64,000 nucleotides of DNA from Stegostoma tigrinum. Taxonomy: Eukaryota. The notes below the pieces were generated by a model. The model saw only the letters and a list, made by a program, of their open reading frames with translations, was not told the origin of the DNA and did no database searches. Shown here piece by piece: positions 8,931 to 56,361 of this stretch (the stretch's first letter is position 1; every line of letters begins with the position of its first letter). Location of the stretch: positions 43,849,912-43,913,911 of the forward strand of contig NC_081383.1 in the NCBI RefSeq assembly GCF_030684315.1, written 5' to 3'. A program made the translations under genes and the position numbers.

Positions 8931-9087
8931 GATCAGTGGATGTGTCCCGTCGTAATCCAATTGCCTCATGGATGTGTGCAATGCTTTATTGCTTTGCCAG
9001 TTACATAATGGCTGACGTACTGCTTGGAGAATCACCCCTCCATTATTTTAACAACACCTCTCACATCTTACTGGCAACTGCTGTTTG
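8931..9087 (+). CDS. TMEM38A: TMEM38A-like TRIC channel, coding exon 2 (157 nt)
   Basis: Acceptor ttttccag| and donor |gtgagt. Encodes (G)[51 protein letters not shown](W), close to TMEM38A [34 protein letters not shown]. Confidence 0.93.
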
Positions 9088-10452
9088 GTGAGTGAACACA
9101 GGTTTTGTCATTCACTTTGTTAAATTCACTTTTTTGCTGTGGGTGGGTGTGATAAGAATCAGGTTGGTGGGCAGAGGAGAACATGAGGGTATGAAAGTAT
9201 AATTATAGTATCATTCAGTATAAAATAACTCAAAGTTTGTTCTTGTTTGTTCCCCACGTTAAAATACTACTCTGCTTGGTGATATTGAGAAATAAATATG
9301 GAGAAGGACATTCGGATTAGTTTACAATTTAGAACACTGCAGTTATCCAGATTGGTTCTAAGAGCTGGACGTCTAGGGAAACATAAATTTAAGAGTAATT
9401 TGACCAAAGTTTATAAACTTACTGGAAATGAAATGTTTTTGCATCGACCAATTGTAAAGATTAGGGAGAATGTGTTCATATTTACTGATCGCGTAAGGAT
9501 AGAGGAATTTACAAAACAGGTTGTTGGTTTGAGTAGGTATGTTGATTTATTGAATTTCTTTAAATAAAAGCTGGGCATGTTTCTAGATCACCTGCTATAA
9601 GTCTTTCCCCAAACCCTAATTGGCTTTAGAATTTTTGTTGTTGTTATTTTTATATGGTTTAGGGTGAGTTGAGATATATGTGGTATATGTGCTGAAGTGC
9701 AAGGCACCACAACTGTATGACTCTGTGTCACAAAATGTAACACTAAGCTACATTAGGAAATGTTAGGTCAAATGTCAAAAAACTTTCAGCCATGGTTGAA
9801 TGACAGAGCAGACTCGATGGGCCAACTGGCCTAATTCTCTTCCAACATCTTATGGAAATGTCTCCATGGAGGAAGTGAATTTGAGAGCCAGAGAGGTGAA
9901 TGATGTATTCCAGACCTTCGCCACTAGGCAACTGAAAGAACAGCCACTAATGGTGAAGCAAGTGGCAAGTAAAACTTAGGGACAAGTATAGTCTTTAAAA
10001 CTGGCTTACTGCACTTGGTTTTTCAAATGAGAATACTGTGAAGCAGCAGATCCAACAAAAAGCTAGAAGTTGGAAATGCTTATGTCAAGGACCCATTGAT
10101 ATGAGGAATTTGTAAAAACTAGATAACTTGTGCAATTGAGGAGGACTGATGCAGGAGGTGGCTTCTGTGGACAAAAAGGCCTGTTTTTACATTGTAAAAT
10201 TCTAAATTATTCAATATTAAAAAAGGAAAAAAATCCATATTTCCTATTTTTGCATAATTACAAGTTAGATCAATGATTTAAAAGAGGCTGATCATAGCTA
10301 TCACTCTATGTTCACTCATTGTCAAATAATTAAACTTAACAATGGCATCAAGCCCCTAGCTACCAACTGTTTCATTGATCAACCTTCAGAGAAATTGGAG
10401 AAATACTATTGTTCCTCCCTACCTCCCATGGTTACACCATTGTGAAAGTAAA

Positions 10453-12462
10453 TGCAATCATTAATATAGCAAGTAGTTTAGCAGATTATGAGGTTAATTG
10501 ATTAAATTGACTGGGTAGATATGGAGGGGATACAAGTACACTTGTTGTTTGGCGCTAGTGTCCCTACCTCAAGTTAGAAGAACCTCAAGTTCAAGTCACA
10601 ACTCCTTCAGGGGTGCATCAAAACATATCCAAACAGGTTGATTAAAATAAGCTGTAAAGAGGAAATAGGTGGGACTGGTGCATACAAGGAACTGTACGGC
10701 TGAATACTTGATAAATTCTACCCACAAAGAATGATGTCTTGGTTTCTGTTTCACTGAGTGACTTTGATGCAGATTGACATTGGGAGTAGCATAAATGGCA
10801 GTCTAAGGAAGGATTGAAAACTAAAGGTTCTTTTCAGGCAGATGATTATAATTGGAGTTACTTTGGAGAAGAATGCTGAAACCAAGTGCAAAGTGTTGAC
10901 TTCCCAGTGACATTTCGTTAAGGTGAACTTAGCAATCCATGGGAAAATGAAGCAGATACGTGTACATAGGTTAAAGCTAGACCAAGAGAAAAAGGTAATT
11001 GCCTCTTCTACCCACTTACTAAAAAGATGATCAGGTGTAATGTATTCTCAGGACTAGAGTCTCAACCATTTTCAGATAGAAACACTTCTGAAAAAGATAT
11101 CAGAAGCATTAAAAAAATTCTTGAAGAATATTCACTACCAGCAACCTTCTGGCTCAATTGGGGTATTCAACAGCAGCACAAAGAATGGAGGATTCGATTG
11201 GAATGGCAAAAAGACACCACTCAGATACAGGCTGAAAGCATCAATACAAGAAGAGAATCTAAAAAATAGAGAAGACAGAAATGCCGACAACACCATCAAA
11301 TGTCGCACTGAAACATTTTAGTGACTACAAATTATTTAGAAGTTGACGAAGGATGCCAAACAAAAAAAGTTGGAGTGCTGGAAAGAATTTAGTATATACT
11401 ATGGTACCAAATAGGGTACCACCAGGCTCTTCATAAAGATAGGTATGGACAGAATATTGTTTCAACTAAAAATCTGGTAGTCAGATGCAACTGTCAATTG
11501 CCCTAACACAGAAAAAGTGATCTTGAAGATCTTAGTTCTTTTAGAAACATACTCTTGGTAATATAAGTCACTTCATATAAAAGTTGCCCTTTTGCAAGGT
11601 GACAAGTTTCAAAGGGTAGCGTTTTTGAAACCACTTAAAGAAGCAGGCAGTATAGAAGAGAAACTGCGGAACTAAGGAAGTAAACAAATGTGTTTATGGG
11701 TTGAATATTGAGTGAAGGTAGGCTGTTTTTCCAGACCTGGATGACCCAGAAGACATATAGCTTTTTAGTGATGCTGCACATGCCAATCCTCCAGTTGGGT
11801 ATTTGTGTATAGCATAGTTTATTACATTCTTGGTGGGAAAGAAGGAAAAATATTTTCTTGGTAGGAGCCAAGAAAATAAAAAAAGGGTATTTCACATCAG
11901 CAGAAGCAAGGACACGTGTGTATTTATCCAATATTCTAAACAAAGTCTTATAAATTTTGACAATCTGAGAAAAAAATGGCCCATAGAATGTAATGTGGCT
12001 AACACATTGTCTTACAAAAGTAATCTTGGAGATCCTGAAATTAGACATAGGCTGATACTAGGCATTACAAGAACACAAAAATCAACTTTTGTTTGGGTCA
12101 CTTTGTGACTAAGAGCATTTATAACATATTTTGTTTCAAGAGAAAGGAATATGAAAGATTGATTGTGTGTGTGGAATTTGAAAAATATCATTACTGATTA
12201 CTGCAGTTGTATTACAAGGTAAGATCTAGAATATGAGGATTGTTTGTTTCCAAACGTTTTATTCAAAGAAAAGGGTGTTTCTTATTACAGGAAGTAGTTA
12301 AATAGTTTTTGGGATTAATTGATTAAATTGACTGGGGTAGATATAAAGGGAGACTGGAGTGTGGAAGGAGCTGTAATCCTGAGTAGTGAATAAACTCTAT
12401 GCACAAAGAAAGGTGTCATGGTTTGTGTGTCACCTATTGGCTTGATTCCCTCTCTTTTAACA
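10453..12462 (+). mobile_element. Degenerate, internally deleted Ty3/Gypsy LTR retrotransposon in TMEM38 intron 2
   Basis: Direct repeats ttaattgattaaattgactggg(g)tagatat at about 10494 and 12316, and cacaaagaa..tgtc.tggttt at about 10723 and 12402. Polypurine tract AAAGAAAAGGG at 12265-12275 is followed by TGT, and the 3' LTR ends in ACA at 12462. The interior has RNase H-like (LRYRLK...NADN) and integrase-like remnants. Confidence 0.65.
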
Positions 12463-12861
12463 CAGTACATAACTTTACTGAACCAACAGGGCATTACTTG
12501 GTGACTTTCTTCACGGTGTCCACAAACACTGCTTTATAGTCAAGCAGTGGGAGAGGTCTGTTAATGTTCTTACCTTTTTGATTTTCCCCCTTTCTATTTT
12601 AAGCTGCTTCCATTTAGGATTGTCTAATTTACTTAATGAATTTCAATACCCAGCAAAGGCATGGCACAGCTTGTACCTGCTGTGCCTACTATTTCAGTCT
12701 ACAACGGGTGAAAAGAAAACTTCTATTAAGGACATTAAATCATGTTAAAACCGTATATTTGTTGAAACTAATGTGGTTTACATATCACCAATTAAATAAG
12801 ATTTAGTTACTAATATTGAACATTTGTCATTACTGAAATAAACACCATTATTTCAACTTAG

Positions 12862-13046
12862 GTACCTCATCTTTTATTGCCCACTGAACCTTTTCTACAA
12901 ATGTGTGGCCTTCATGCCTGTGAAGTTGGTCCTCACTGCTATGAAAGAGGTGGTGCGAGTCCGCAAAATTAGTGTGGGTGTAGTCCATGCACACCATGCT
13001 TACCACCACGGATGGATCATAATGGCTTTGGTTGGATGGGCCAAAG
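12862..13046 (+). CDS. TMEM38A: TMEM38A-like TRIC channel, coding exon 3 (185 nt)
   Basis: Acceptor cttag| and donor |gtaagt. Encodes [61 protein letters not shown](G), with the TRIC KEV.R.RK motif. Phases are compatible with the flanking exons. Confidence 0.95.
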
Positions 13047-13359
13047 GTAAGTTGCCTTTTATTGCTTTATTTTTGAAATGTTACACTGGATATTACAGTG
13101 CTATACAGTCATTTTGTATTAACCAGTCCCCTAGCCAAGGACTGCCCTCGAGCTGCATATTCCTCCAAAAACATTCATCTTGTTCAAGTCAGAACTAAAA
13201 TGGACTTGGTATCGGCATGAAACAAAATGTCCAATTTTGTGACAGAGAAACTGCAGTCCATATTGAAAGATACCCAGCTACATAGTCAAAGGCAACAAAA
13301 TATCCAGAGCACTTAGGCCATTACTTAGTACTGGTCATTGTTATTTTTGTTCCTCACAG

Positions 13360-13447
13360 GTGCTGGAGTTGCACTGATCTCCAACTTTGAGCAGCTGATT
13401 CGTGGAGTCTGGAAGCCTGACACAAATGAGTTTCTCAATATGTCCTT
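13360..13447 (+). CDS. TMEM38A: TMEM38A-like TRIC channel, coding exon 4 (88 nt)
   Basis: Acceptor tcctcacag| and donor |gtaagt. Encodes [29 protein letters not shown](F). Confidence 0.95.
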
Positions 13448-13988
13448 GTAAGTGAAAATTACAGCACAAAATAAAAGGGCAGCATATTTTACAACCTGAG
13501 CAATTTAGTAAAAGAAAATGAATGTTTGAAGTATGGACTGTAAAGTGGCAACAAATTAACTCAAACCTGGTTTGTGCTGCCATTCAAAGCTCCTTAGCAC
13601 CTCTTTAGTATTTCCAAGTAGAGGAATTAATGGTGCAGTATTTGGATACCGTGACATGTGCAAGTTCAGTCCTGTTCTCCGGATATGGAAAGACAAGAAG
13701 GATGGGGAAATGGGGGAGTTGGTGGAGGGTAATGGTAAGGACATTGAGCAAAGACAAGGTGCCTCTCCACAAGGAAACAGAAGAGTAATGAACAGCATTG
13801 CTGCTGATCTGAAACCTTTTAGCAGAATCTGAAGGCAGATAATCCACTGGGCTTTTCAATTATAAAAGTAGCTCATCCAAAAGTGGGAAACTGATTGCAC
13901 AAAAATGGTCACTAAAAAAAAAAACAAAAATGGAGACATTACACAACTAACAAAACTAACTGTACATTTTTATTCTGATCTCTTATAG

Positions 13989-14106
13989 CCCAACAAAAGC
14001 TAGTTTGGTTGGAGCTGTTGTCTTCACCCTACAGCAGGCCCGCTGGCTTCCCATATCCAAACACAATATCGTCTTCCTGTTCACCATCTTTATGGTTGTT
14101 ACGAAG
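13989..14106 (+). CDS. TMEM38A: TMEM38A-like TRIC channel, coding exon 5 (118 nt)
   Basis: Acceptor tcttatag| and donor |gtaaat. Encodes [39 protein letters not shown]. Confidence 0.95.
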
Positions 14107-15089
14107 GTAAATATATCTTTTCAATTGACTAAAATAAAAACAGGTTTAAGCTATGTGATATGCTATGCAAGTGGATGCAAGAGTGTTACTTTCCTTTCCA
14201 ATCTAAAGTTTATGAAAGATTAAAATATTGAAACTCAATATTGATTGTGACTAAAAACTTCCAGTGTTTCTTTCAGTATATTAAAACATTGTCAATTAAG
14301 ATACTTTTGTCTTTATTCATTCATGGAATGAGAGTCACTGGCAATATGAATATTCATCAGTTCATTCCTTATTGGCCTCAAGAAGGTGGTCCACTACTAG
14401 CTGGTCAACTGTCGTGGTCCAAGTGGTGTGCACACATGCAAAGTACAGTTAGATAGGGAGATGCAGGATTTCCAGTTCCAGGCCCATTAATTGTAAAGGG
14501 TGATGTTTCAGTCAGGGACAGATTTGCACAGGATGGTGTTCCTGGATGCCTGAAGGCTTTGTCCTGTTAGGTAATAGAGGTTATAGGCATGAAATTCTGT
14601 CAAAGGAGCCTTGGTAATTCGATGAAGTGCATCTTGTAGATCGAAGACAATGCTGCCACAGTATGCCAGTGAGATTCTATCATTATGATTACTTTTGGCT
14701 CAAGGCTCTTTTCACTATGAAGTTATTAATTAATCCTGCATCATTAAACATTACTAGGTCTTAAAAACCTTGCTTCTGGTTGACACTGAACATACTCCAA
14801 GAAATAATCCAAAAAATTCTGTGCCAGTGTTGTACCAATTAATTTACCAATACACAATGCTACCAAAATAACAAATCATACTACTACTACTGGGATGACA
14901 CTAATTTGGTGATTGTTTCATAAACAGAAGCAACAAGATTCACCACACCAGTCAATAACAGTTTTTTTAAAAATCCAGAGATGAATATACTGAGATTTTC
15001 ACCATACATTGCAAATCGCAGTAAGAGGATACAATAAGGGCTATAGATGTAGGCAGCAAGTTTAAAAAAAAGACAAAACATAGATGTCC

Positions 15090-15385
15090 CCACCTCCTTG
15101 ACCTGATGCAACCAGTCCATCCCATTCTCACCTATCTGCTCCACCCCTCCCATTGACCAATCTCTACAGCCCCCATTCTGCATCCAACTATTACTATCCC
15201 ACTTACCATCCCCCAGCTTCCCTCACCCTCCCTCTATTTATTTCCAAGCTCCCTTCCCCCTCCCCAGTCTTGATGAAGGATCCTGACCCAAAACATTGAC
15301 TTTACTGCACCTCAGATGCTGTCTGACCTGCTGTGCTCCTCCAGCTCCACATTTTTTTGACTCTGACTTCCAACATCTGCAGCAC
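15090..15385 (+). mobile_element. Penelope pLTR fragment, degenerate
   Basis: C-rich tract followed by TGATGAAGGATCCTGACCCAAAACATTGAC and CCTGCTGTGCTCCTCCAGCTCC, homologous to 32500-32870. Confidence 0.7.
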
Positions 15386-15779
15386 GTGCTATGTTCTAGA
15401 CAAACTCTGTATCAGATGGAGTTTAATACAGGTAAGTCAGCTCAATAGGTCAGATCAAATAACAAGTCTGCTGTGGTCAAGGGGCCATAATCTGAACCAT
15501 TCTGGAATGATATCACGAAAAATATTTTCACACAAAGGGTACTGGAAATCTTGACCTCTGCCCAAAAACACTGCCAATGCTGTATCATTCACTAGATTTT
15601 TCTTAGTGAAGCAGAGTTCAGGTGCAGATCAACCAAGATCTAACTGAGTAGTGGAACATACTTCACTGCCTAATTCCTATTCCAAACTTGCAAATGACTA
15701 AAATAATGTGAGAAAAATAACGAATGTTAAAAATAAATGGATATCTCTAGCTATTGTATTTTTACATCTATCATTCTAG

Positions 15780-16010
15780 GTATTCATGACAGCAACACAT
15801 TCCCATGGATCACCTTTCGCTCCACTTGAAGCCTTTATTTGCCCTATTATCTTTGGGAATGCCTGTGGTACCTATGATGATCATGATCGTGTCTGCTCTC
15901 GTGACAATATACAGAGCTGCACCCCTTGCAATCTGTCTCCGTACTCAGCCAAGACAAAGGAGGAACTTAATGAAGGGACAAGGAAGAAGAAATGCAAAAA
16001 GACTGAATAA
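15780..16010 (+). CDS. TMEM38A: TMEM38A-like TRIC channel, last coding exon 6
   Basis: Acceptor cattctag| then VFMTATHSHGSPFAPLEAFICPIIFGNACG...AKTKEELNEGTRKKKCKKTE*, matching TMEM38A ...AKSKEELSEGSRKKKAKKAD. Ends in a KKxx ER-retrieval motif. Confidence 0.95.
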   Translation, partial: VFMTATHSHGSPFAPLEAFICPIIFGNACGTYDDHDRVCSRDNIQSCTPCNLSPYSAKTKEELNEGTRKKKCKKTE

Positions 16011-16991
16011 GTGATATGACTCCCACCACAGTTATCAAGGCGTGCAGAAAGTGCAATTTCTGGGACTTAATGTGATCTGGAAACTGTTACTATGAGGAAA
16101 ATCGACATAATTGTACTCATACAGTCTACTAGGGTTTGCGTTTGAGCTTGTCTGTCTCATTAAATGGAAAGAAAAATGTGAACAAACAGTAGTTAGCCTA
16201 TCCTTCCCAAGGATGTATTTCCTCATCAAGTTCCATCTAGATAAAGCAGACAGCATTAGTATGGTAATGATTTATCAATGTCTTTGAATGACCATTCAGC
16301 TACACAATGTGAAGAAAATGATAATAGTCATTTTCTTTTCCAAAATTGATGGAGTGTATTGTTGGAACAATGTAAGAGGAAATGTTTTATTCACATCTAG
16401 CCAACACTGTATTAGATTGGAGAGAACTTTATTTTGTCACCATTTGTAAAAGCATACATAAATTCTATATTCCAGCAGGATTATGTCAGACTTTGGACTG
16501 GACAGCCAAAAGTCAAAATGGAGGTGCTATAAATACCAACTAGTGGTAAAGTGAAATGACCTCTGCTGATAATTAGAGCACCTGCATTGTTCTCATTCTG
16601 GACTCACAGTGGAAATGCAGACACTAACTCCAGTACAGACAGTGGAGCTGTGACAAACAAAAGGTCAAAGTTTCCATTGAATAATAGACAGCGGAATGCC
16701 ACATGTATGTGTTAACTACTAGTTCAGCAACATCTATTGCATAAAGTGCAACAGCTGTATCTGTTCCACAAATATTTGCCAAAATACCACTTCAGGAAAA
16801 TTCAGGCCGAAAGTAGGTCAACGTGCCTTGTTTTAAAAATGAGAACCGCATTCTCCTGTAATTCTGTACAAACATGCACAAAACAATCTTTATCAGGTGA
16901 ATGTAGAGAGTATTCCATTGTTGCCAAAAAATAAATTGTAAGGAAATGTGTTATATTTGTGGTCTTCCAAGAAATGAAACAGATGTAATAT

Positions 16992-17004
16992 AATAAAGAT
17001 TAAA
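16992..17004 (+). terminator. Candidate polyadenylation signals of the TMEM38 gene (AATAAA + ATTAAA)
   Basis: AATAAA at 16992 and ATTAAA at 16999, about 1 kb after the stop, followed by a T-rich tract. Another AATAAA lies near 16930. Confidence 0.45.
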
Positions 17005-17571
17005 TATAAGACATTTTATGTTTATTGAAATATATTAAATGCCCCTTATCTGCTATGTTTTCTACAACAAAATTCACTAGTTATCAAACAATATTGCCCA
17101 AATATTCATGCCTGTGTATGTTGGAATGTAAATTGGGATTTAAAAATAGTGCCAGGACATGTCTCCAGGATTCCCACCTCTCACGTGGGATTTTTATAAC
17201 CCTAAGAAAAGATCGCGGGTAGTACAACTTCACTACTGCACTAAGCAATCACCTGCCTGCCTAAAAATTGAGAGGGGGGAATTTCAGATGCCCTTCCATT
17301 TTCATGGAGTCAGGTTTATTTTGGTAATTCTGGTTTACTGCACCTTGGAGGAGAAATGAACCACAGGGAGAACTCAGTCCCAAGTGGGTAAACAAAAAAA
17401 AAATCATCCGGTCCTTGAGTTCTTTTCTCACAAGATTTTGAAATAAAAAGAAAAATCTTCTTGCAGTCTTCAGTAGTTAAATACTGTGTGATAAGCTAAA
17501 TGTGCTTTTTTCCTTCTTGAGTTGTTAACCTATAGGGTTTTGTCCTGCATAGATAAGTTGATTATTACATT

Positions 17572-18560
17572 AAGAACATACAACAGTACAGCACAGTACT
17601 GGCTCTTTGGCCCACATGTTGTGTTGACCTAATAACCTACTCCAAGATCAAAACTAAGCTATATACCCTTCATTTTACTATCATCCATGCGCCCATCCAA
17701 CAGCCTCTTAAATGTTCCTAATGTATCTGACTCTACTACCACTGCTGGCAGTGCATTTCATCCACCTACCACTCTCTGTGTAAAGAACCTATCTCTGACA
17801 TCTCCCCATACCTTCCTCCAATCACCTTAAAATTATGCCCCCTTGTGAGAGTCATTTCCACCTTGGGAAGAAGTATCTGGCTATCCACTCTATCTATGCC
17901 TCTCATCATCTTGTACACCTCTATCAAGTCACCTCTCATCCTATTTTGCTCCAATGAGAAAAGCCATTGCTCCCTCAACCTTTCCTCATAAGACCTGCCC
18001 TCCATTCCAGGCTGCATCCTGGTAAATCACCTCTGCACCCTCTCTAAAGCTTCCACATCCTTTCCATAATGAGGCGACCAGAGCAGAACACAATATTCCA
18101 AGTGTGGTTTAGCCAGGGTTTTATAGAGCTGCAGCACAACCTCGCAGCTGTTAAACTCAATCCCCTGCCAATGAAAGCCGAAACACCATATGCCTTCTTA
18201 ACAACCCATCAATTTTGAGGGATCTACAGAGATGACAATAGACAATAGGTGGAGTAGGCCATTCAGCCCTTCAAGCCAGCACCCAAGATCCCTCTGCTCC
18301 TCCACAAAGCCAAGAATCCTACCATTAACCTGTACTTTGCATTCAAATTCGATCTTCCAAAATAAATCACTTCACATTTTTCCCGGATTGAATTCCATCT
18401 GCCTCTTCTTTATCCAGCTCTGCATCCTGACAATGTCCCACTGCAACCTACAACAATCCTCCACATTATCCACAACTCCACCAACCTTCATGTCATCAGC
18501 AAACTCAATAACCCACCCTTTGAATTCCTCATCCAAGTCATTTATAAAGATCACATTGAC
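17572..18560 (-). mobile_element. CR1 LINE 3' portion (RT domain to 3' end)
   Basis: ORFs 18372-18581 (FINDLDEE...FADDMKVGGVVD) and 17766-18017 (SYEERLRE..LFSLEQNRMRGDLIEVYKMMRG). Confidence 0.9.
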
Positions 18561-19005: not shown

Positions 19006-19130
19006 CATAGAACATAGAACATAGAACATTACGGCACAGCACAGGCCCTTCAGCCTTTGATGTTGTGCCGACCTGTCATACCAATCTGAAGCCCATCTAA
19101 CCTACACTATTCTATATACATCCATGTCCT
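19006..19130 (-). mobile_element. CR1 3' tail with (CATAGAA)n microsatellite
   Basis: catagaacatagaacatagaacat at 19006-19029 next to CR1 3'UTR-like sequence. Confidence 0.65.
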
Positions 19131-21295: not shown

Positions 21296-24200
21296 ATGGC
21301 CTTCAGTAGACTGACCTGTTCTTCTTGTTGGATGTGGGAGATTAGGGACAGTTTCCATGTTACTGGTGATCATGTCTGTAGGAAGTCTGTTTGGTTGTGA
21401 ATCCTACTGGATCACATGGATTGGTTGGAGCGGCAGTTAGAGGCAGTGAAGAATTTACAGGAGCTGGGAATGTGATGGATAGCAGTTGCAGGGAGGGAGA
21501 TAAACTGAAGTTGCAGTCAAGTAGTTGAGTCACCTCCAGAAAAGGTAGGAAGGGAGGCAGGTACTGCAGGAGTCTCCTGTGGCTCTCATCTCAAACAAGT
21601 ATGCTGTTTTGGAAAATGTAGGGAATGATGGATTCTTAGAGGAATGTAGCCAACTTTCTGGTACCAACACTGGCTGTAAGGTAATGAGGAGTATGCCAGG
21701 TTGCAAGCAATTAACTGTGATAGGGGACTCTCTAATTACAGGCACATACAGAAGATGCTGCCGACAGCGAGACATCAGAATGGTATGTTGTCTCCCTGAA
21801 GACTGTATTAAAGATATGTCTGAGAGGGTGCAGAATATGCTCAAAGGGGAGAGGGACCAGCAGACGGCCATTGTACACATCGGAACTAACGGCATAGGAA
21901 GTGAAAAAGACAAGATTCTGAGGAGAGAGAAGTTAGGCAGGAATTTAAGAAGCAGTCCCTCAAGAGTAGTAATATGTGGACTACTGCCACGGCCATGTGC
22001 TAGTGAGGATAGGAATAGGAGAATAGAACAGATGAATGCAAGGCTCAGGAGCTGGTGCAGGGGAAAAGGATTCACATTTTTGGATCACTGGAATGTCTTC
22101 TGGAGTAGAAGTGACCTGTATAAGAAGGACAGACTGCACCCGAGTTGGGAGGGAACTAATATACAGGCGAGGAGACTTGCTTGAGCTGCTCGGGAGGATT
22201 TAAACTAGTAAAGGGGGGCAGGGGTGGGGCAGTGGCGAGGGGACCCAGGAAGATAGTGAGGAAAGTGATCAGTCTGAGACTGGTAGAGTTGGGAAAAAGA
22301 GTAAGTCAAATAGACAGGGAAGGCAAGAACACTGTTGAGAACACGGTAAGAATGATAAATTAAACTGCATGTATCTCAATGTAAGAGGATGAACAGGTAA
22401 GGCAGATGAACTCAGGACATGGTAAGGAACATGGGCCTGGGATATAATAGCTCGGGGATGGATGGGATTGGCAGTTTAATGCTCCAGGGTCTAGATACTA
22501 TAGGAAGGATTGAAAGGGGGGCAAGAGACAGGGGACTGGCATTTTTGATTAGGGATAACACTATGGTTGTATTTAGTGAGGATATCCTTTGGAATATGTA
22601 CAGGCTAGTTATTTGTGTGGACCTGAGAAATGAGATCACCTTATTGGGATTGTACTATAGACCCCACAATAGTCAGTGGGAAACAGATTTGTAAGGAGGT
22701 CTCAGTTACCTGTAAAAATAATATGGTGGTTATGATAAAGGATTTTAATTTTCCAAACATAGACTGGGACTGCCATACTGTTAAGGGCTTGGATGGAGAG
22801 GAATTTGTTAAGTGTATACAAGAAAATTTTCTGATTCAGTATGTGGATGTATCTACTCGAGAAGGTGCAAAACCTGACCTACTGTGGGGAAATAAGGCCA
22901 GAAAGGTGACTGATGTGTCTGTGGGGGAGCACTTTGAGGCCAGTGACTATATTTCTGTTAGTTTTAAAATAGTGATGGAAAAGGATAGGCCGGATCTAAA
23001 AGTTAAAATTCTAAAGTGGAGGAAGGCCAATTTTGACAGTATTAGGCAAGAACTTTCAAAAGTTGTTTGGGGTGGGGGGCAGATGATTGCAGGTAAAGGG
23101 ATGGCTGGAAAATGGGAAGCCTTCAAAAATGAGATAACAAGAGTCCAGACACAGTATGTTCCTGTTAGGATGATGGGCAGGGCTGGAAGGTGTAGGGAAT
23201 GCTGGATGACTCGAGAAATTGAGGTTTTCATCAAGAGTAAGGCGGCATCATATGGCAGGTATAGATAGCAGAAATCTGTGATTCCCTAGAAGAGTATAAA
23301 AACAGTAGGAGTACATTTAAGAGGGAAACCAGGAGGGCGAAAAGGAGATATGAGATAGCTTTGGCAATTAGGGTTCAGGAGAATCCAAAGGGATTCTACA
23401 AATACATTAAGGACAAAAGGGTAACAGGGAGAGAAACAGGGCCCCTTAAAGATCAGCAAGACCATCTATGTGTGGAACTGCAGGAGTTGGGGGAGATACT
23501 AAACGAGTATTTTACATCAGTGTTTACTGTGGAGAAGGATATGGAAGATAGAGAACATGTGGACATAAATAGCAACAGCTTGAAAAACATCCATATTACA
23601 GATGAGGTGTTGGACATTTTAAAATACATAAAAGTGAATAAATCCCTGGGAATTGATCAGTTGTACCCTAGATCTCTGTGGGAATAGAATAGGGAATCCC
23701 TACAACAGAGAAAAAGCCCCTCAGCCCAACAAGTCCACACCGACCGTCTGAAGGGCATCACACACAGATCCATCACCCATCTAATATTTCCCCATGGCTA
23801 ACACATTTAATGTACACATCTCCGGTGACTATGCGGTAATTTAGCATAGTCAATCCAACCAGCTTGCACGTCTCTGGACTGTGGGAGGAAACCAGAGCAC
23901 CCAGAAGAAATCACGCAGACACGAGGAGAATGTGCAAATACCACACAGACAGTCGCCCAAGGGGGGAATTGAACGCTGGTCCTAGTCACTGTGAGGTAGC
24001 AGTGCTAACCACTGAGCCACCATGCAACCCCCAGGGAAGCTAAGGAAGAGAATGCTGAACCCCTTGCTGTGATATTTGTGTCATTGAGGGTGAGGTGCCC
24101 GAAGACTGGAGATTAGTTAATGTGGTGCCACTATTTAAGAAAGGTGATAGGAAAAGCCAAGGAACTGTAGACTGGTAAGCTTGACATTGGTGGTGGGCAA

Positions 24201-25521
24201 GTTGTTGGTGGGAATCCAGAGGGACAGGAGTTATATGTATTTGGAAAAGCAAGGACTGATTAGGGATAGTCAACATAGCTTTGTGCATGGGAAATCTTGT
24301 TTCATAAATTTGATTGAGTTTTTTGAAGAAGTTACAAAGAGGATTGATGAGGGCAGAGCTGTGAACATGATCTATATGGACTTCAGTAAGGCATTCAACA
24401 AGGTTCCTCATGGTAAACTGGTTAACAAGGTCAGATCACACGGAATACGGGGAGAATTGACTACTTGGATACAGAACTGGCTCGAAGGTAGAAGATGGGG
24501 CGAGAGCGAAGGGTTGCTTTTCAGACTGGAGGCCTGAGACCAGTGGTGTGCCACAAGGTTCAGTGCTAAGTCCACTGCTTTTTGTCATTTATAAAAATGA
24601 CTTGGATGTGAATGTAGGAGGCATGGTGAGTAAGTTTGCAGATGACAGCAAAGTTGGAGGTGTAGTGGACAGCGAACACAATTACCTCAGAGAACACATG
24701 GGCCAATGGGCCCAGGAGTAGCAGATGGAGTTTAATTTAGATAAACGTGAGGTGCCAAATTTTGGAAAGGCAAATCAAGGCAGGACTTATACACTTAATG
24801 GTAAGGCCCTGGGGAACGTTGTTGAACAAAGAGACCTTGAAGTGCAGATTTGCAGTTCCTTCAAAGTGGAGTCACAGGTGGAGAGGATAGTGAAGGCAGC
24901 ATTTGGTATGCTTGCCTTTATTGGTCAGTGCATTGAGTATAGGAGTTGGGAGGTCATGTTGCAACTATACAGGACATTGGTGAGGCCACTATTGGAATAC
25001 TGCATGCAATCTTCATCTCCCTGCTACAGGAAGGACGTTGTGAACCTTCAAAGAGTTCAGAAAATATCTATATGGATGTTGCTAGGGTTGGAGGCTTCAG
25101 CTACAGGCAGAAGCCAAATTGACTCTGGCTATTTCCCCTGGAGCATCGGAGGCTGAGGGGTGACACTTATAAAATCATGAGGGGCATGCATAGAACAAAT
25201 AGACAAGGTCTTTTCCCCAAGGGTCTATAACAAGAGGGCAAAGGTTTAAGGTGAGAGGGAAAAGATATTAACAGGGCTTAAGGACAGCTTTGTCACACAG
25301 AAAGTGGTGCATGTATAGAATGAGCTGCCAGAGATAGTGCTGGAGGCTGGTACAATGACAACATTTACAAAGCATCTGGATAGGTATACGAAAAAGACAG
25401 GTTTACAGGAATAAGGGCTAAATGCTGGCAAATGGGACTAGATTTATTTAGGATTTCTGGGCTGGCGTGGACGAGTTAGACTGAAAGGTCTGTTTCCATG
25501 CTGTACATCTCTATGACTCTA
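21296..25521 (+). mobile_element. Near full-length, inactivated CR1/HER1-type LINE (ORF1 zinc finger + SGNH esterase; ORF2 APE endonuclease + RT)
   Basis: ORF1 from ATG 21296 (CSSC..CRK; VIGDSL..., VHIGTN, DRLHPS). ORF2 APE (KDFNFPNIDW, SDY) and RT ([32 protein letters not shown]). 3' tail ctctatgactcta. Many stops and frameshifts. The 5'UTR may extend to about 20700. Confidence 0.92.
23686..24034 (-). mobile_element. HE1-type SINE inserted into CR1 ORF2
   Basis: Minus-strand head ATGGTGGCTCAGTGGTTAGCACTGCT. It interrupts the CR1 frame at YPRSLWE|A, with GGGAA repeated on both sides. Confidence 0.85.
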
Positions 25522-25524
25522 CAT

Positions 25525-36943: not shown

Positions 36944-37139
36944 NNNNNNNNNNNNNNNNNNNNNNNNNNNNNNNNNNNNNNNNNNNNNNNNNNNNNNNNN
37001 NNNNNNNNNNNNNNNNNNNNNNNNNNNNNNNNNNNNNNNNNNNNNNNNNNNNNNNNNNNNNNNNNNNNNNNNNNNNNNNNNNNNNNNNNNNNNNNNNNNN
37101 NNNNNNNNNNNNNNNNNNNNNNNNNNNNNNNNNNNNNNN
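36944..37139. other. Assembly gap (196 N)
   Basis: Run of N characters. Confidence 1.
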
Positions 37140-47800: not shown

Positions 47801-47864
47801 ACTGCACACCTTGTATCTTGCAATATTTAGTACCAAATTGATACTTCTGTAAGTTTCTGTTGAT

Positions 47865-48665
47865 CACTTGGACCAGTGGGCAGAAGAGTGGCAGATGGAG
47901 TTTAGTTTGGATAAATGCAAGGTATTGCATTTTGGTAAAACTAACAAGGGCAGGACTTGTACAGTTAATGGTAGGCCCCTGGGAAATGTTGTCGAACAGA
48001 GACACCTAGCGGTTCAGGTGTGGTCCCAGGTAGACAGCGTGGTTAAGGCATTTAGCACGCTCGCTTTCATTGCTCAAACCACTAAATATAAGGAGTTGGG
48101 ACATCATGATGAGGTTGTACAGGATGTTGAGGTCACTTTTGGAACACTTTTTGTCGAAACAGTTCTGATTTTCCTGCTGTAGGAAGGATATTATTACATT
48201 GGACAGGGCCAGAAAAGATTTACCAGGAAGTTGTGGAGACTGGAGGGTTTGAGATATAAGGAGAGCTGGATAGGCTGGGACTTTTTTCCTGGAGCATAGG
48301 TTGAGGGGTGGTCTTCTCGATGTTTATAAAGCCATGAGGGGCATGGATAAGGGAAATAGCAAAGGTCTTTTCTCTAGTGTGGGGGTGGGTGGATTCACAA
48401 CTAGAGAGCATATTTTTAAGGTGAGAGGAGAAAAGATTTGAAACGGACCCGAAGGGCAACGTTTCACACATGGGGTGATTTGTCTGGAGGAGGAACTGCC
48501 AGAAGTGGTAAATGCAAGTACAACCATTTGGACAGCTACGTGAACAGGAAAGATTTAGAGGTATATGGGCCAAATACAGGCGTGTGGGCTAGTTTAGTTT
48601 AGGAATATAGGTCGGCATGGGCAAGTTGGACCAAAGGATCTCTTTCTGTGTTATATGACTCTCTG
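47865..48665 (+). mobile_element. CR1 3' fragment
   Basis: DQWAEEWQMEFSLDKCKVLHFGKTN through to the 3' tail tatgactctc. Confidence 0.88.
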
Positions 48666-49359
48666 CCTCTGATTGCTACTGCCATGTTACAACTTGGTGA
48701 GGAGGATGATGTGCTCCTTTCTCATCAACACACCCTGTCAGTCAAAGCAAATGCTATTTTTTTTGACACGTAGTTATAACACTTCAATTAAATCTAGGTA
48801 GCCAGATCTAACAGGAAACCCAATTCCAAGGTTATATGGCATGAAGGAGATTGATGTTTTATGCCCTATTAAAACCAATGCATCAAGAACACATGACATT
48901 AAAACACGTGCTCACGCATGTGTATGCATGCACCAAAGATAGTAAGCTTAGGAAAAAAAAGAGCGGATCAGATGGTGTCCATGCAGGCAGAATTTTCAAA
49001 TAATTTCAGTTTAAAGTTTTTAGACTCATTGTGTTGTGAGTGCAAAACTTGAGTTCAGGCAGGTTAGCAGGTGTCCTAGTTCCTTGGAAATGGCAAAGCT
49101 TGCTGGTAAACTGGAGTTGTTGGTGACTAAAAAGCAAATTATTGCAGATACTGGAGATCAAAAATGAGAACAAAAAATAACTGTAGAAAAACAGGTTTGG
49201 TAATATGTGGAGAGAGAAAACATTTGTGTTTCTATTAGGGTCTGGGATTGGTTGATGTAGAATCATGTGGTTGGAGGTAAGAAATAACAAGCCAAAGCAG
49301 TCACTGTTAGGAGCAGTCTGCAGGCCCCTAGCACAGCAGCCAATAAATCAGGGCATGAG

Positions 49360-50770
49360 GGCATGTAACAAAAAAAGCAATGCATTAATCATGGGTGACA
49401 TTAACCTTCATGTGGATTGGGAAATTTTGAATCAAAGGTAGCCACAAGGAAAAATTCATGAAATTCTTAGAACAACATGTTGTGGATCCAGCGTTCAGGC
49501 TGTCTTGGACCTGATAATGAGGCAGGTTTGATAGTCGTCTGAATGAATGATCCCTGAGGGACCAGTGACCATAACATGTTGAATTCAAACATTTCAGATA
49601 TTTTTACAGAAGGCCAAAGTGAACATAGACCCCCATGGTGAGTAAGGCTGTGGAAATAATGGGGAACCAGGAAATGACAGAGTTCAGTGAATACTTTGCT
49701 TCAATCTTCATGGTAATAGACATTAAAAAAGCATTCCAAAAATACTAAATAATTGCAGGGGAGGAGAGGCTGGCAGGTGAGGAAATAAACTTAATGATCA
49801 TTAAGCAATGTTGAATTCAGCTTTCAGTTCAAGTGTGAGAACCTTGAGTCAGAGACAGATAACAAGAATTGCAGATCAGCTATAGTACTTTTTCCTGTAA
49901 TGGGGCTGTTAGCTGGTCAGATTTCTACACCTGATGAGCTGCACCCAAGGATTTTAAAGGAAGTAGCTACAGAGATGTTGGATGCAATGGTCATAATTTC
50001 AAAGAATCTTTCTCTTTGGGAAGTGTCACAGAGGTTGGGAAAACTGCTGACGTACCACCCTTATTCAAGAAGGCAGGGAGTCAAGAACCTAGCACCTATA
50101 GGCCAGTTAGCTAAATCCTTAGCATAGGGAAAATGCTAGAGTTTGTTATAAAGGAGGTAATAGCAGAGTATTCAAAAATGCTTGATATACTCAGAGTCAG
50201 CATAACCTCGTGAGGGTAAAATCATGGCTGAAAAATTTATTAGTTTTGTGGAATAACAAATATACGAATGGAGATCAGTAGATGCAATGTACTGGGATTT
50301 CCAAAGTGTTTGACAAGGTACCACACATTAGGGTATTTAAAGTAACTGTACATGGTATTGAAGTAATGTATGAGTGTGGGTAGAGGATTGGCTAATAAAT
50401 GGCACAGAGTTGGAATGGGGGGGCATTTTCAGGATGGCCACCAGTAATTACTGGAATGCCAAAGAGATCAGTGCTGGGGGACAATTGTTTATCACATATA
50501 TTAATGATATAGATGATGGAAATGAATGTAATGTTGCCAACTATGTTATGCACAAAAATGGGTGGAAAGGTGAGGATGAGAGTGGTATACAAACTGGTTA
50601 GGTGTGTGGATGAAAACTTGACAGAATGTAATTTCTCAAACTGAGAGGTCCTGCACTTTGGCGGGAAGAATGGAAGAGTTTAACATTATTTTAATGGAGA
50701 AAGACTGCAGAAATGATGGAGCAGACACAGTGGGTTGAATGATCTACTTCTGCTCTTGAAGTCTTATGTA
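49360..50770 (+). mobile_element. CR1 ORF2 fragments
   Basis: IMGDINLHVDW, PDELHPRILKEVA and LFITYINDIDDG motifs. Confidence 0.78.
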
Positions 50771-51045
50771 TTCCTTAAGACTAAAGTGAACAACTAGGCT
50801 GTGTGTTGGCTTGGGCCAGCGATAATTCACTATTCGATATATCTTGCTCATTTTCTTAAATTCCCTCTTCATTCACCTGACCCCATAAGCATTGCAACTG
50901 AAACTGGAAATTTGGGAAGAGATTGGATTTGCAATTCCTATTCAAATATCCTGCTGTTTCACCTCTGCTGAAAAGAATGGAAGAAGGATAACATTATTTT
51001 CTTTTTCAGAAGGTTTTCCAAAAGGTGTGATCAACTGCAATTGAG

Positions 51046-51238
51046 ATGTTCCATTGTGGTTACTGTGATTTGGGGACAGCGTGCATTGATGAGCTAGATA
51101 TTCACATTCTAGAGACACATACAGACTTTCAGCCTTCTGACTGCCCTCCTGACAAATTATCCAATCAGATTTTTCCAGTTTCGACATGCTCCAATTTACA
51201 ATCCAGTCAGCCTGACATGCAGATATTTGTCAATCCTG
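51046..51238 (+). CDS. ZNF462-like zinc finger protein, first coding exon
   Basis: Acceptor ttttctttttcag| (exon starts 51010), in-frame upstream stop at 51028, ATG at 51046. MFHCGYCDLGTACIDELDIHILETHTDFQPSD aligns with the ZNF462 N-terminus VLQCDGCDFRAPSYEDLKAHIQDVHTAFLQPTD. The phase-1 donor CTG|gtaag joins in frame to 53108. Confidence 0.88.
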
Positions 51239-53107
51239 GTAAGAATGCATTCATAAAACTGTTATTTTCTTTTGCTTCTTTTTCCAGCATGTAACTGTGT
51301 TCAGTTTATGGAATTAGGTTAAGTACTGGTAGGTGTGCAAGCAATGCAGCTCGTTGCTGTCAAGAAAAACATTGTTCAGTGGATATGTTGGATACACTGA
51401 GTACTTAATTATAGCAATAAAACCAGATGTTCCTACTTCATTATTATAAACATGCAGGGTGGAATCTCAAAGGTTAGAACAATATGGGATATACCGTGAG
51501 ACTTGTGGCAGAATCATGCAAAATTTCTGATGGGGCCTATCTAAATGTCAGAAGCTTCACAAGCCATCCTGTGTGCTTTTGACAAGTGATGTGGTAGGTT
51601 TCTTGCCATGCAGTGATGAATTGTCAATTAGGAGGGATTGTTGCTTGTTAAACACCTAGTTAAAGGCCCAACACGCCTCATTAATATTCAACTTATCTTA
51701 GTAAATCTGCCAACGAGCTGGAAATTGACAAATCTTTACATGAAAATCAAAATGGGTACCTGGTGATTTCAATTCAGTATTTGTTCCAAAGGACCTCCTT
51801 CCTGGACACCACCACTATGGGGCACAGTCCGTAGGCACTGGTCACCCACACCACACATTGTCAGATATTGTTATCAGACATGGGTTTAACATGACTGTCT
51901 TACTTTTGTGCTCTGTACCCCTGTGTATAAAGTGCAGGAAACTGCATTCCTTATCAACTACAAAATGCACTTGCACATCATTTAGAGTTTATAATTGCGC
52001 CCTTTTTTATGTCAATTTTGGCATTCTTTCTAACAAAATTGTAGAACTTACTACTTTCCTGCCTTAAATTTAATCTGCCAATTGCCTATTCAATCCATCA
52101 ACATGCCTTGACCTTTATGCTAACCTCCACACAGTTTCTAATATATCAAAAATTTCAGTTGTCTGTAAGCTTTGAAACTCTGCCAAGTGCACCAAGGTGC
52201 CGCTATTTAAGTTGCGTATATAAGGAAGAACAGTGAATCCATTGCAGTCCCAAAATCATTCAATAACAACATGGAGACAAGTAATTGTTCCTCTAGTGTG
52301 AATTTGAATTATTTCATTTTGGCATGTATCTATCCAGAGTAGGAAATGTCTGCCTTAATGTATTGACTTACCTATTATCTTTTTTAGTGTACTTTGTTTT
52401 AGGAACATCCTCTGTTCTGGAATTTTATAATCTTGCTCATTTTTCATTCAGATCTTCCAAATATGTTTTAATGATTTATTTTATACTTGACTGTACCTTC
52501 AGTCATTTTCCTGGTTGAGACAATTGTGGTGGCGGAGTGACACTTATGACGAAATGACATATGGCTTGTCCCACCCCCCACCCCTGCTCAGACATTTGTT
52601 CTCTCTTTTAGAGCATCCTGCCTTGTTCCATCTTAACTGTGTTCAAATACTTTAAAAAGATGCTTAAAAACATCTGTCGCTTTAACTGTTACAGCCTCTG
52701 ACAATATAATTTCAGAGCGAAGTGATGGATTGACTTCATAGAATCTGCAGGACAGTACAATCCAGATAGGGTTAATTGTTGTTTTGATCTGCAACTTAAT
52801 TGTCCAGTGTTTCTCTCAGGATCACCAAATAAATAAATGTCGAACTCTGTCTCAGTAAATGAGACAGATTTCTGATTGTTACGAATAAATTATTTCAGTC
52901 AGTAAAAGCAAAATACAATGGATGCTGGAAATCTGGATATAAACAGAAAATAGCGTGGAAACTCAGTGGCCCTGACAGCACCTGTGGAGTCAGGAACAGT
53001 TAAATTCTGATTCCAGAGATATTTCTTTAAAACTAAGTGTTTGTCTTTTGCTGTATACTTCTACATAATCCTAAGTAATTTTACTGTGATATTCGCCCTC
53101 TGTGTAG

Positions 53108-56100
53108 GACAAGGCTTGAGAGTTGGGAACAAGAGTGACTTGAATGAGGACTTGATCCACAGCAGTCATGTTATTCCATCAGTTGACCATTTCCAAATGA
53201 GTGGTGAGTATCCTTATGGATGCACAGCTTTCAAGGAATATCTGAATTCCTCTTGTGAGACAGTTGGGAAATTAGAAACACTAGAAGAGTCAAACAAACA
53301 AGTTGCTCTTTCCAACACGAATGCAACATTTGCCATTGAGCAGGTGACGGATGTGTGTAGTATTGCACGTGATAATGAATGCAATAAACCCAACATTTTC
53401 AACAAGGAGTCCGAATTAGATCTGCTAAAGGACGCTACTTTGCCCTTCAAAAGTGCTGAGGAACCGGAAATGACAAACCTGGGTCTCTCACAACTTCGTG
53501 AAACTATGTTGGAAGTAACTAAGGAAACGGAACTGTCTGAAAGTTCGTTGTTTTTACCTCTGGATGGAGGACAGAATACATTGCCAAAACAGATTAATCC
53601 TGATAAACCAAACAAAGATGGGATGGAAGTGGAAGTAGATGGAAAATTAGTTGCAGAGACTGGTAAGATGCCCTGTTCGTGGTGTGAACATGACACATTC
53701 AATAAACAATGCTTTGAAGGTCATACAAAAGAACAACATAGTTACTTTGAAAGTGACGAAGAGACTCCGATCTCCACAATGGAGCCAGGGTACTTGGGAT
53801 GTAAAGAACAGGACTCCAATTCTCAAGTTGATTCAATGAATTATGCTTCTCGGAATGCAGAGACAATAGTGAGAGAGAGTGAACTGTGTAGAATTGAACG
53901 TGAAAACCCTCTCTCAAAAAGCAATTCGGGTGACATCTCAATAACTGGTGGTGACAAACCTTCCAAGAATATGCGACAGAAATCTGTAACACATCTTACT
54001 TTTCGGCAAAAAGTCAGAACAACATTAAAACTTAACAGCCAAACTGTATTCTATGTGAAACGACTATGTTTGTTTCATTGTGTTATTTGTCGATTTCATA
54101 CTTTGTACCGTCGTTGTGTCTTGCGCCACGTGAGGAGTATGCATCATAGCCACGTTAGAAGTCCTAAACTGAAAGGCTGTGTCAGGTTTTCCAATGGTTT
54201 AAGTACACTGAAACTTGGTAAAAAGGAGTGCACTTTAAAAAAGTTAATTTTGAACAGTGGTCCACTGCCCTTGGAAAGAAAGGATTCCCGAGTACTCAAA
54301 CCAGATAGGAGTGTAAGAAGTGAAAATGTAAATTTGATGCCTTTTGTTGCAAATCCATCACTTTGCCCTAGTGAATCAGATATTACTGAATCTAAAAATT
54401 GCTTAAGAAAGCAACATGTTAATCCATGTCATGAAGTGTCATTCGTCCAACAGATTAATGATCAAATACAATTTTCAATACCTTATCTTCTGGCTAATGA
54501 TTCAGATGCTAAAACAAGTTCAGTAATACCTAAAGATCCTCCAGGAGCTCCTTCACATTTTTCACCGTTGATGACGTCTTATGAGAAGATAACCTATGGT
54601 GATCTGAATATTAAAACTCTGCCACCTTCTAGTAAGTGCCTGGCATTGGAAGCCATAGTGGAAAACCTGAAAAGTCGTGTGGCATCACCAATCAAATGCA
54701 GGCCAACAGTTGCATTGCTTAATGATCGAATAGCAAAGCCCAGGCGAAGCATTCCATTTTGTAGAACAACAGAGGAGCAGCAGGCTAAGTGGGTGATGGA
54801 GGCATACACTTTCTTAAAGCAACAGAAGATTGAAAGAGCTGCTGAGTTTTCTTCCTGTGATGATGATGATTATCTCCTTGATGCAATGGCTGAAATTGAA
54901 GTCGTGCTATCTGATACAGATGATAACGGTAACTATTCACAAGGCTGTCAAAATTATGGAACTTCAAACGTAAACTTTGCAAAAGCAGCAGAAGACAAAA
55001 GAGAAATTCTCAGTCTTGCATCAAGTGCAAAAATAGAACCAGGAAATGTTTGCAGTCGGTTGCACAAATGTGACATCTGTCCTTTTTCAAGTGCCAGTAT
55101 TATGTCAGTTCTGTCACACTGTCATAGACAACACCCCGAAGAAAACATACCTTCCCCCAAGATCCAGAAATATAGCAGTAAGATGACTGTGCAGACGGGA
55201 TTAGATTTACCTTTGCCCAAGCACAGCTTATTTTGGTTTGATTCTAAATCTGCTGATTCAGTTATTCCTTGTTTTACTGGATCTTCAACATTGTGTTTCT
55301 GTGAACATTGTTCATTCAGTGGAGACTGGGTTTCTTTATTTGAGCATTACCAAAAATCTCATACATCTACAAATGTAACTAAATATGGGAGACCGAAAGA
55401 GTCAGAGAGAAGAAATGTCAGCAATTTACAAGTCAGGGCTCCAGTAGCTTCCACTTCTAGCAGTGAGCCACAGGTGGTGTTTCAGTGCCAGCTCTGTAAT
55501 TTTACCTGCTCATCAAGACGAGTCATTTGTCGACACTATTGCATCAGGCAGAGTGTTACTTGTGCTCAAGTTGAAGACTTTGATATTCTTTACAAATGTG
55601 CCTTGTGTATGTATACTCATTTAACTCAGGAAGGACTCATTAATCATTATCTCATATACCATGATATTGAACCTCAATTTAGCTCTCGTGGAATCAAGAC
55701 AGGCCAGAATGAACTTGTCTCATTCCTATCCAGTGATGAGGATCTGAAAGCTGGTATGGAAAAACAGATATGTATGCTATGTTCATTTAAGGCTATTACT
55801 CAAAAAGAACTTTTGTTCCACTATAAATTACGACATCCAAGATTTTATTCCCAAAATAGGTGCACTATTGAATGTAAAAATCATGCCAATTTGCATACAA
55901 CAAACCTAGATCCACAATTTTGTGAAGCAAAACATTTCAAGAATGGAAGTGAATGTGTAAAGACTATGTTGGAGTGGGGAATGAGTGTGGTCAATACCAA
56001 GGAGCCTTCAGCCTTTGGTGATGGCAGTGAACTTGAATTGATCAGCTGTAAAAGAGATCGAGACTTAATAATGGCAGTGCCTGTCAGAGAACACCTGAGA

Positions 56101-56361
56101 AATCAAAACAACAGCCCATTTCATTATGGGCAGAAGGCCATCATGACTGCAAACTCATTAGATGTAACAAAATTGCCATCTAAACAATTTCCACTGAACA
56201 GACCTGGAAGTCGGAGCGTAGAATACAACCTAATGCCAGGAAAGCAAAATGTTGACAGCAGTGACATTTTTTGTGAATTTGGTGATCCTCTGAATAAAAT
56301 CACAGTCCAGGAATCTATATTTGGTGCTGAAGATGACTGGCAACAACGAGACCTGGTATGA
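53108..56361 (+). CDS. ZNF462-like C2H2 zinc finger protein, giant exon (3254 nt)
   Basis: Acceptor ctctgtgtag|GA CAA opens an uninterrupted 3.25 kb ORF with about 7 dispersed C2H2 fingers. FQCQLCNFTCSSRRVICRHY...LYKCALCMYTHLTQEGLINHYLIYHDIE matches recalled ZNF462 FRCQLCKYFCSTRKGIARHY...LFKCALCAYTNPIRKGLAAHYQKRHDID. It ends at TGA 56361 or splices at CTG|gtatga (56355). Confidence 0.9.

Follow-up and report, generated by a model that had tools for sequence, protein, structure and literature searches.

The window analysed here is a stretch of 64,000 nucleotides from the shark Stegostoma tigrinum (RefSeq assembly GCF_030684315.1, contig NC_081383.1, positions 43,849,912 to 43,913,911 of the forward strand), numbered from its first letter. 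It carries two genes, both on the + strand: a TMEM38 gene encoding a TRIC channel (exons within 8931-16010) and a gene related to ZNF462 (exons within 51046-56355). A preliminary description of this DNA had placed the first directly upstream of the second on the same strand. The order and the strand hold, but 35,035 bp separate the stop codon of the TMEM38 gene from the ATG of the ZNF462-like gene. The span given in that description ended at 56361, which is the end of the stop-to-stop open reading frame (ORF); the exon itself ends at 56355, and 56361 lies six bases into the intron. The first coding exon of the ZNF462-like gene had been missed.

The TMEM38 gene and its place among TRIC channels

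Five exons of the TMEM38 gene were recognized on the + strand, all with AG/GT ends. Exon 2 (8931-9087, 157 nt) holds the equivalent of Gly74 (codon 9026-9028), and exon 3 (12862-13046, 185 nt) contains the motif KEVVRVRK and the equivalent of Lys129 (codon 12965-12967). They are followed by exon 4 (13360-13447, 88 nt), exon 5 (13989-14106, 118 nt), with an ISKHN patch, and the coding part of exon 6 including the stop codon (15780-16010, 231 nt), which encodes an A-type C-terminal tail. Spliced together, they form a single open frame of 258 amino acids closed by TAA, in which all seven motifs quoted in the preliminary description for an A-like protein with B-like patches are found. These are exons 2-6 of a six-exon gene; TMEM38A has six exons in human, mouse and zebrafish (PMC9899828). 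Exon 1 was not found within the 64-kb window, and a scan against Rfam gave no match.

The exons matched solved TRIC structures. Exon 2 aligned with residues 44-93 of chicken TRIC-A (E = 7e-21) and with Xenopus TRIC-B (2e-9), exon 3 gave 2e-27 and 1e-15 and exon 6 gave 2e-16 (over 76 amino acids) and 0.24, respectively, so that chicken TRIC-A was preferred by all three exons tested. The closest full-length relative (P0126, 95.7% identical) contains the TRIC domain PF05197 with 259.5 bits (cut-off 25.9). The motif KEVxRxxK and the gating lysine K129 are described features of TRIC channels (PMC9899828, PMC7940156), and in the window the lysine of KEVVRVRK aligns with the residue mutated in structures 6IZ0 and 6IZ1. 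At position 74, Gly is the residue associated with TRIC-A and Ala that associated with TRIC-B; the window has a glycine there, as do TRIC-B of the ray Narcine and all six outgroups used below.

A search with exon 3 returned 142 matches. Among the 120 listed, the top three were cartilaginous-fish proteins, every name that bears a type says type A, and the A-type clusters with chondrichthyan names numbered three, all 95-98% identical to the window. The spliced protein is 95-96% identical (246-248 of 258 residues) to TRIC-A of the sharks Heterodontus, Chiloscyllium, Scyliorhinus, Mustelus, Carcharodon, Cetorhinus and Heptranchias. Identity is 90-94% with rays, 85% with TRIC-A of the chimaera Callorhinchus and 65-68% with bony TRIC-A; it is 43-49% with full-length TRIC-B. 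TRIC-B of Narcine bancroftii (XP_069777850.1) lies on a contig of 494 Mb and TRIC-A of the same ray on one of 376 Mb.

A maximum-likelihood tree with TMEM38A, TMEM38B and invertebrate TRIC had been proposed in the preliminary description. Ours comprised 32 rows and was rooted on six outgroups; its B and invertebrate sequences came from a profile search of 50% representatives, with the best 150 of 692 matches listed. The window protein fell among shark A proteins, within an A clade (98/99) whose cartilaginous half (98/97) is sister to its bony half (98/99). The B clade (100/96) excludes it and places Narcine B as sister to bony B, and the A and B halves each agree with the species tree. A quick mixture-model tree of 63 rows had the same shape. 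Approximately unbiased (AU) tests were carried out on 27 of the 32 rows, after dropping two aberrant B models, one sawshark duplicate and two distant outgroups; a shark gene outside both A and B was rejected (p-AU 0.029). By best match, 230 further TRIC proteins were assigned to bony A (148), invertebrates (66), bony B (14), shark A (1) and ray B (1), and no clean third vertebrate lineage was found among them. The 16 unclear cases listed, four of which were among seven examined in full, consisted of aberrant models and of distant proteins (29-40%). No lamprey or hagfish TRIC was identified among the sequences collected.

Because of the tree, the identities, the separate ray TRIC-B and the synteny in skate described below, we are nearly certain that the window gene is the orthologue of TMEM38A. 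The suggestion of a third TRIC locus is thus not borne out: this is an ordinary shark TMEM38A rather than a third channel gene, and TRIC-A is already known and annotated. Orthology by tree and synteny is part of what the preliminary description had named as refuting its proposal, the other part being a total of only two TMEM38 genes in the genome.

The B-like patches of this protein have a wide distribution. GWAKGAG was present in 19 of the 21 cartilaginous-fish A proteins examined, the other two, from stingrays, having GWVKGAG; ISKHN or a near form occurs in most cartilaginous-fish A proteins, and FAP is also seen in A proteins of coelacanth and birds. The patches are common to nearly all cartilaginous-fish TRIC-A and do not mark a separate gene. 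At the 25 sites that differ between the consensus sequences of bony A and B, the window has the A residue at 16, the B residue at six and neither at three. The outgroups match the shark residue at two of the six B-type sites (site 99, 6/6; site 221, 5/6) and are mixed at the rest. Judging from the outgroup residues and from trees of the segment concerned, the patches are best read as retained old states, bony A being the party that changed.

Several further observations touch this gene and its relatives. After the last helix, the tail encoded at 15780-16010 has five cysteines and one histidine, and bony A tails are rich in histidine. A very high-copy short repeat lies near 15050-15557, inside the last intron. 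In two DNA contig runs from one sample, searched over 8700-16300 at 80% likeness, depth in the exon bins was 10.8-15.6, like that of unique flanks, and a single contig of 7185 bases spanned exons 2-5; depth in such runs is not copy number and the sample may be that of the assembly itself, so we did not count these values as evidence. The sawshark Pristiophorus japonicus has three TRIC-A-like entries (P0007, P0149, P0150) of two types, with 284 identical positions between the types; in one of them the protein is shorter by two residues and KEVVRVRK carries His in place of Arg. The tree joins the types as sisters (99/97), which points to a recent duplicate of that lineage and not to an old third channel. 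Amphioxus also has two TRIC proteins (P0206, P0213), with near accession numbers on one contig, neither of them falling within the vertebrate A or B clade; they are probably a tandem pair of its own.

The ZNF462-like gene

The first coding exon of the downstream gene (51046-51238, + strand) begins with ATG and encodes one N-terminal C2H2 finger. It is followed by a giant exon (53108-56355, + strand; 3248 nt) with seven further finger-like motifs, which we take to resemble exon 3 of human ZNF462. Variants of ZNF462 concentrate in exon 3 (PMC12433108). The two exons amount to 1147 stop-free codons, and the gene runs past the window, with about 456 further residues encoded beyond it; later exons were sought within the window and none was found. 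The Pfam model zf-C2H2_ZNF462_11 was matched with 34.3 bits (cut-off 27).

The predicted protein is identical over 595 amino acids to XP_048415946.2 of Stegostoma tigrinum, annotated as ZNF462-like, and 90% identical to a whale-shark protein; the gene is thus already auto-annotated in databases under that name. RefSeq model XP_048415946.2 begins only at 54571; it leaves out 552 residues whose codons are open in the window and which relatives conserve, and therefore looks truncated. At full length the protein has about 1600 amino acids; pattern matching counts 13-15 finger motifs in it and 35 in teleost ZNF462. Fingers of ZNF462 type exceeded the Pfam cut-off, for both models, in four of six full-length relatives, and the N-terminal ZNF462 models PF23223, PF23224 and PF23077 were matched by none of the six. 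Ray models (P0196, P0197, P0199, P0183) are without the first finger exon of sharks, through loss or incomplete annotation.

A search of 5019 candidate proteins of similar length yielded 14 relatives, of which the 13 named ones are from sharks and rays and one is unnamed. Among proteins of greater length, 17 ZNF462 proteins were found, at 25-27% identity. The window protein is collinear with ZNF462 in its first finger, in a middle block (33-39%) and in a C-terminal block (26-29%, E about 1e-50), the last being the best-matching stretch; for comparison, teleost and bird ZNF462 are 79% identical in the middle block. In all 12 relatives compared, the fingers (68-95%) were more conserved than the linkers (42-90%; 42-47% between the window shark and rays), as expected of a working gene. 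Searches of the ESM Atlas gave generic C2H2 clusters only, apart from one cluster of 196 chordate members that is considered below.

Judged by its sequence, this gene is a member of the ZNF462 family. It does not show the features of the canonical ZNF462 orthologue, given its length, the lack of matches to the N-terminal models, its lower conservation and its linkage to TMEM38A rather than to TMEM38B, RAD23B and KLF4.

Linkage, synteny and origin of the pair

Accessions were read for 10 of the 14 ZNF462-like clusters, and TMEM38A and the ZNF462-like gene were linked in all 10 species having both records. The two accessions are consecutive in five of them (Chiloscyllium punctatum, GCC33647/8; C. 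plagiosum; S. torazame; Heptranchias; Narcine). In the other five (Heterodontus, S. canicula, Pristis, Rhinoraja and Mustelus) the contigs are of equal size and the accessions are 13 to 783 apart. The two genes are thus paired in sharks and in rays alike.

The neighbourhood on the other side of TMEM38A is known from the skate, in which Tmem38a (LE21804) and Tmem38b (LE17229) are separate genes (tables of PMC10115646). On Leri_29C, the positions of 10-kb loop anchors place Tmem38a at 15.12 Mb, Med26 at 15.18, Slc35e1 at 15.26, Rad23b-1 at 15.42, Eps15l1 at 15.47, Klf2-1 at 15.75 and Ap1m1-1 at 16.02, and Sin3b and Cpamd8 lie elsewhere on the same chromosome 29 (PMC10115646). Rad23b-1 on this chromosome presumably corresponds to RAD23A. 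The order in pig is SIN3B, NWD1, TMEM38A, SMIM7, MED26, SLC35E1, CHERP, C19orf44, CALR3, EPS15L1 (PMC12189728), and chicken chromosome 28 has the same gene set at 4.0-5.0 Mb, together with KLF2 and AP1M1 (PMC8469556). As far as these sources go, skate Tmem38a is bordered upstream by the genes usual for TMEM38A. The 90% identity of the window protein to skate-type TRIC-A suggests that skate Tmem38a is its counterpart.

TMEM38B has another setting. In human, mouse and zebrafish it is flanked by ZNF462, with RAD23B and KLF4, and TMEM38A by SMIM7 and NWD1 (PMC9899828). In chicken, TMEM38A is on chromosome 28 and TMEM38B on Z (PMC12396434). Skate chromosome 29 corresponds to chicken 28 (2-beta) and skate chromosome 3 to chicken Z (2-alpha), both deriving from one ancestral group; skate Klf4 is on chromosome 3 (PMC10115646), where Tmem38b would also lie according to its identifier block. 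Among the rows listed in the skate supplementary tables, there was no ZNF462 entry, and no ZNF462-type gene among the anchors below 15.12 Mb on chromosome 29 (PMC10115646). In the pigeon, a gene model (P0086) fuses TMEM38A to SIN3B, likely an annotation error; it suggests that the two genes are close neighbours in this bird. The SIN3B part of the model had no match in the window.

These data make us fairly confident that the window holds the presumably single TMEM38A of this shark together with a diverged ZNF462 paralogue 35 kb downstream of it, the two stemming from a pair that existed before duplication. Both the proposal that TMEM38-ZNF462 was an ancestral pair and the option that TMEM38A has here stayed beside its ZNF462 partner, raised in the preliminary description, are supported by the flanks of TMEM38B, the linkage in all 10 species, the collinearity with ZNF462 and the beta chromosome. 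We infer the following sequence of events. TMEM38 and ZNF462 would already have been neighbours when the vertebrate genome doubled for the second time. The block TMEM38B-ZNF462-RAD23B-KLF4, on chicken Z and skate 3, would descend from the alpha copy, and TMEM38A with a sister of ZNF462, near RAD23 and KLF2 on chicken 28 and skate 29, from the beta copy. The beta sister would have been retained in sharks and rays and lost in bony vertebrates, mammals having NWD1 beside TMEM38A. Faster evolution and more frequent gene loss are reported for beta segments, and the position of this ZNF462 relative, downstream of the second TMEM38 and on such a fast and lossy sister chromosome, fits a retained ohnologue. 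That the ZNF462-like gene is an ohnologue of ZNF462 appears likely to us; it is probably a fast-evolving, undescribed genome-duplication sister kept in sharks and rays. For 19 ohnologues, retention in cartilaginous fish and loss in bony fish have been reported (PMC10115646), and the ZNF462-like gene shows the same pattern, as a beta copy that evolves faster and was seen only in sharks and rays.

The observations that weigh against this reading concern both genes. For the channel, the topology joining the shark gene to B was 13.8 log units worse and yet was not rejected (p-AU 0.061), and support for A fell to 89/96 with fewer outgroups (27 rows in both cases). Exon 4 is nearly equidistant from bony A (76.7%) and bony B (75.3%), and residues 151-224, a segment picked after the patches had been seen, group weakly with B when taken alone (81/75), with the topology keeping A together unrejected (p 0.345). 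This would fit gene conversion, exons 4-5 of TMEM38A having been partly overwritten from TMEM38B in the cartilaginous-fish lineage to give a mosaic channel. Yet the ray's own B is no closer to the window than bony B (exon 4, 70 versus 75%; exon 5, 56 versus 55%) and the tree of this segment keeps Narcine B together with bony B (98/96), unpaired with shark A, which speaks against conversion in the shark lineage. The residues at sites 99 and 221 also recur in invertebrate outgroups, and FAP in coelacanth and bird A. We consider such a conversion very unlikely. We also considered hidden paralogy, the shark 'A' being a separate genome-duplication copy and the true TMEM38A lying elsewhere or lost. 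The six B-type diagnostic sites and the ZNF462-type neighbour are real, and a paralogue at least 50% identical to A or B could sit in the cluster of a representative, of which 150 among 692 were listed. The agreement of both halves of the tree with the species tree, the rejection of a position outside both, the MED26-SLC35E1-EPS15L1-KLF2 neighbourhood of skate Tmem38a, the three chondrichthyan clusters close to the window and the absence of a third-lineage candidate among the 230 proteins screened make a third TRIC gene extremely improbable.

Further points of the same kind are that accession order is a proxy for adjacency, that the SMIM7 and MED26 positions fall outside the window, the SMIM7/MED26/SLC35E1/EPS15L1/KLF2 synteny having been seen in skate through its loop anchors, and that the 196-member chordate cluster of the ESM Atlas (representative of 2024 amino acids) is named ZNF462-like; it may consist of teleost duplicates or represent a wider form of this paralogue. 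Furthermore, the canonical shark ZNF462 was not found in the search at greater lengths, whose 17 proteins are from teleosts and birds where named (two are unnamed). No chimaera or bony-vertebrate member was among the 14 relatives, which come from a word-index search that needs shared five-residue words and misses distant relatives. Both results would speak for the gene being the only ZNF462 of sharks, relocated and fast-evolving, or a duplicate of the shark lineage placed beside TMEM38A by chance, and with linkers evolving so fast, distance alone gives no date. Against this stands the position of the gene, downstream of a TMEM38 as in the TMEM38B-ZNF462 pair and on the paralogous beta chromosome; it is unlikely that a gene inserted by chance would come to lie beside the sister of its former neighbour, and a fast rate is what is reported for beta segments. 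We regard relocation or chance as improbable and retain the pre-duplication pair as the origin of this locus.

The interval between the two genes yielded no further gene: of 21 selected ORFs compared with Pfam, three matched, all of LINE type, though a gene with short exons could escape this analysis. It contains a decayed LINE retrotransposon (21549-25153, + strand) with an esterase-like ORF1 and pieces of endonuclease and reverse transcriptase, and an assembly gap of 196 N (36944-37139). A second decayed LINE remnant lies at 61259-62171; an esterase-like ORF1 and remnants of endonuclease and reverse transcriptase are found among such copies.

Proposed functions and comparison with known systems

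TRIC-A provides a K+ counter-current during Ca2+ release through ryanodine receptors, is gated at K129 and responds to luminal Ca2+ at G74, and modulation of RyR2 is ascribed to its tail (PMC7940156). By analogy, the shark channel very probably works in the same way. As we infer from orthology, it would be a homotrimeric K+ counter-ion channel of the endoplasmic or sarcoplasmic reticulum that aids the release of Ca2+ by ryanodine receptors in muscle. Lys129 would control its gating, as would luminal Ca2+ through Gly74, and its tail is of A type.

Mouse ZFP462 silences transposon-derived enhancers, and its C-terminal fingers bind G9A/GLP and HP1 (bioRxiv 10.1101/2021.06.28.449463). The ZNF462-like protein would be a trimmed C2H2 factor that kept 13-15 finger motifs, including the C-terminal blocks that mouse ZFP462 uses for G9A/GLP. 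Since its best-kept block is C-terminal, it might, by analogy, be a heterochromatin-recruiting repressor with changed DNA targets, a view for and against which we find the arguments evenly balanced. A more speculative and rather doubtful proposal is that a ZNF462 ohnologue confined to cartilaginous fish, having shed over half of its fingers and kept the C-terminal block, acts as a second, fast-retargeting heterochromatin recruiter, for instance against transposon-derived enhancers of sharks, and keeps, on the side of TMEM38A, the TMEM38-ZNF462 pair as it was before duplication.

In the literature examined, ZNF462 is treated as a lone, highly conserved vertebrate factor. No publication on a third TRIC or on a ZNF462 paralogue was found in our literature searches, subscription papers being outside their coverage. 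If the sister copy is real, it dates ZNF462 to before the second genome doubling, fixes an ancestral TMEM38-ZNF462-RAD23-KLF block and offers a natural deletion series (13-15 of about 35 fingers) for separating repression from targeting fingers. TRIC biology would be unchanged, jawed vertebrates still having two channels; the shark A protein has changed slowly, and its only use is to point out A/B differences of later origin in bony fish and tetrapods.

Compared with known systems, the window channel resembles TRIC-A (PF05197; chicken structure 6IYU) in the best matches of its exons, the KEVxRxxK motif, the equivalents of Lys129 and of Gly74 (a glycine also present in Narcine B and the outgroups), the A-type tail and the six-exon layout, of which five exons are seen, and the skate orthologue lies in the MED26/SLC35E1/KLF2 block. 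It differs from bony TRIC-A, which has GWVKGSG and SK[AS]x where the shark keeps GWAKGAG and ISKHN, in a cysteine-rich instead of histidine-rich tail, and in having a ZNF462-like gene and not NWD1 as its downstream neighbour. TRIC-B belongs to the same family, shares six of the 25 diagnostic residues and is also paired with a ZNF462-family gene, but it has KEVTR[TA][WR]K in place of KEVVRVRK, is 43-49% identical and has its own ray orthologue on a separate contig. As to ZNF462/ZFP462, the gene of Weiss-Kruszka syndrome, the likeness lies in the fingers of ZNF462 type, the collinear blocks, a short first coding exon followed by a giant one, and the TMEM38 neighbour. The shark gene departs from it in size (about 1600 versus about 2500 amino acids), in the number of fingers (13-15 versus 35), in an identity of 26-39% in the best blocks, in the lack of a match to PF23223, PF23224 or PF23077, in its much faster evolution and in its linkage to TMEM38A.

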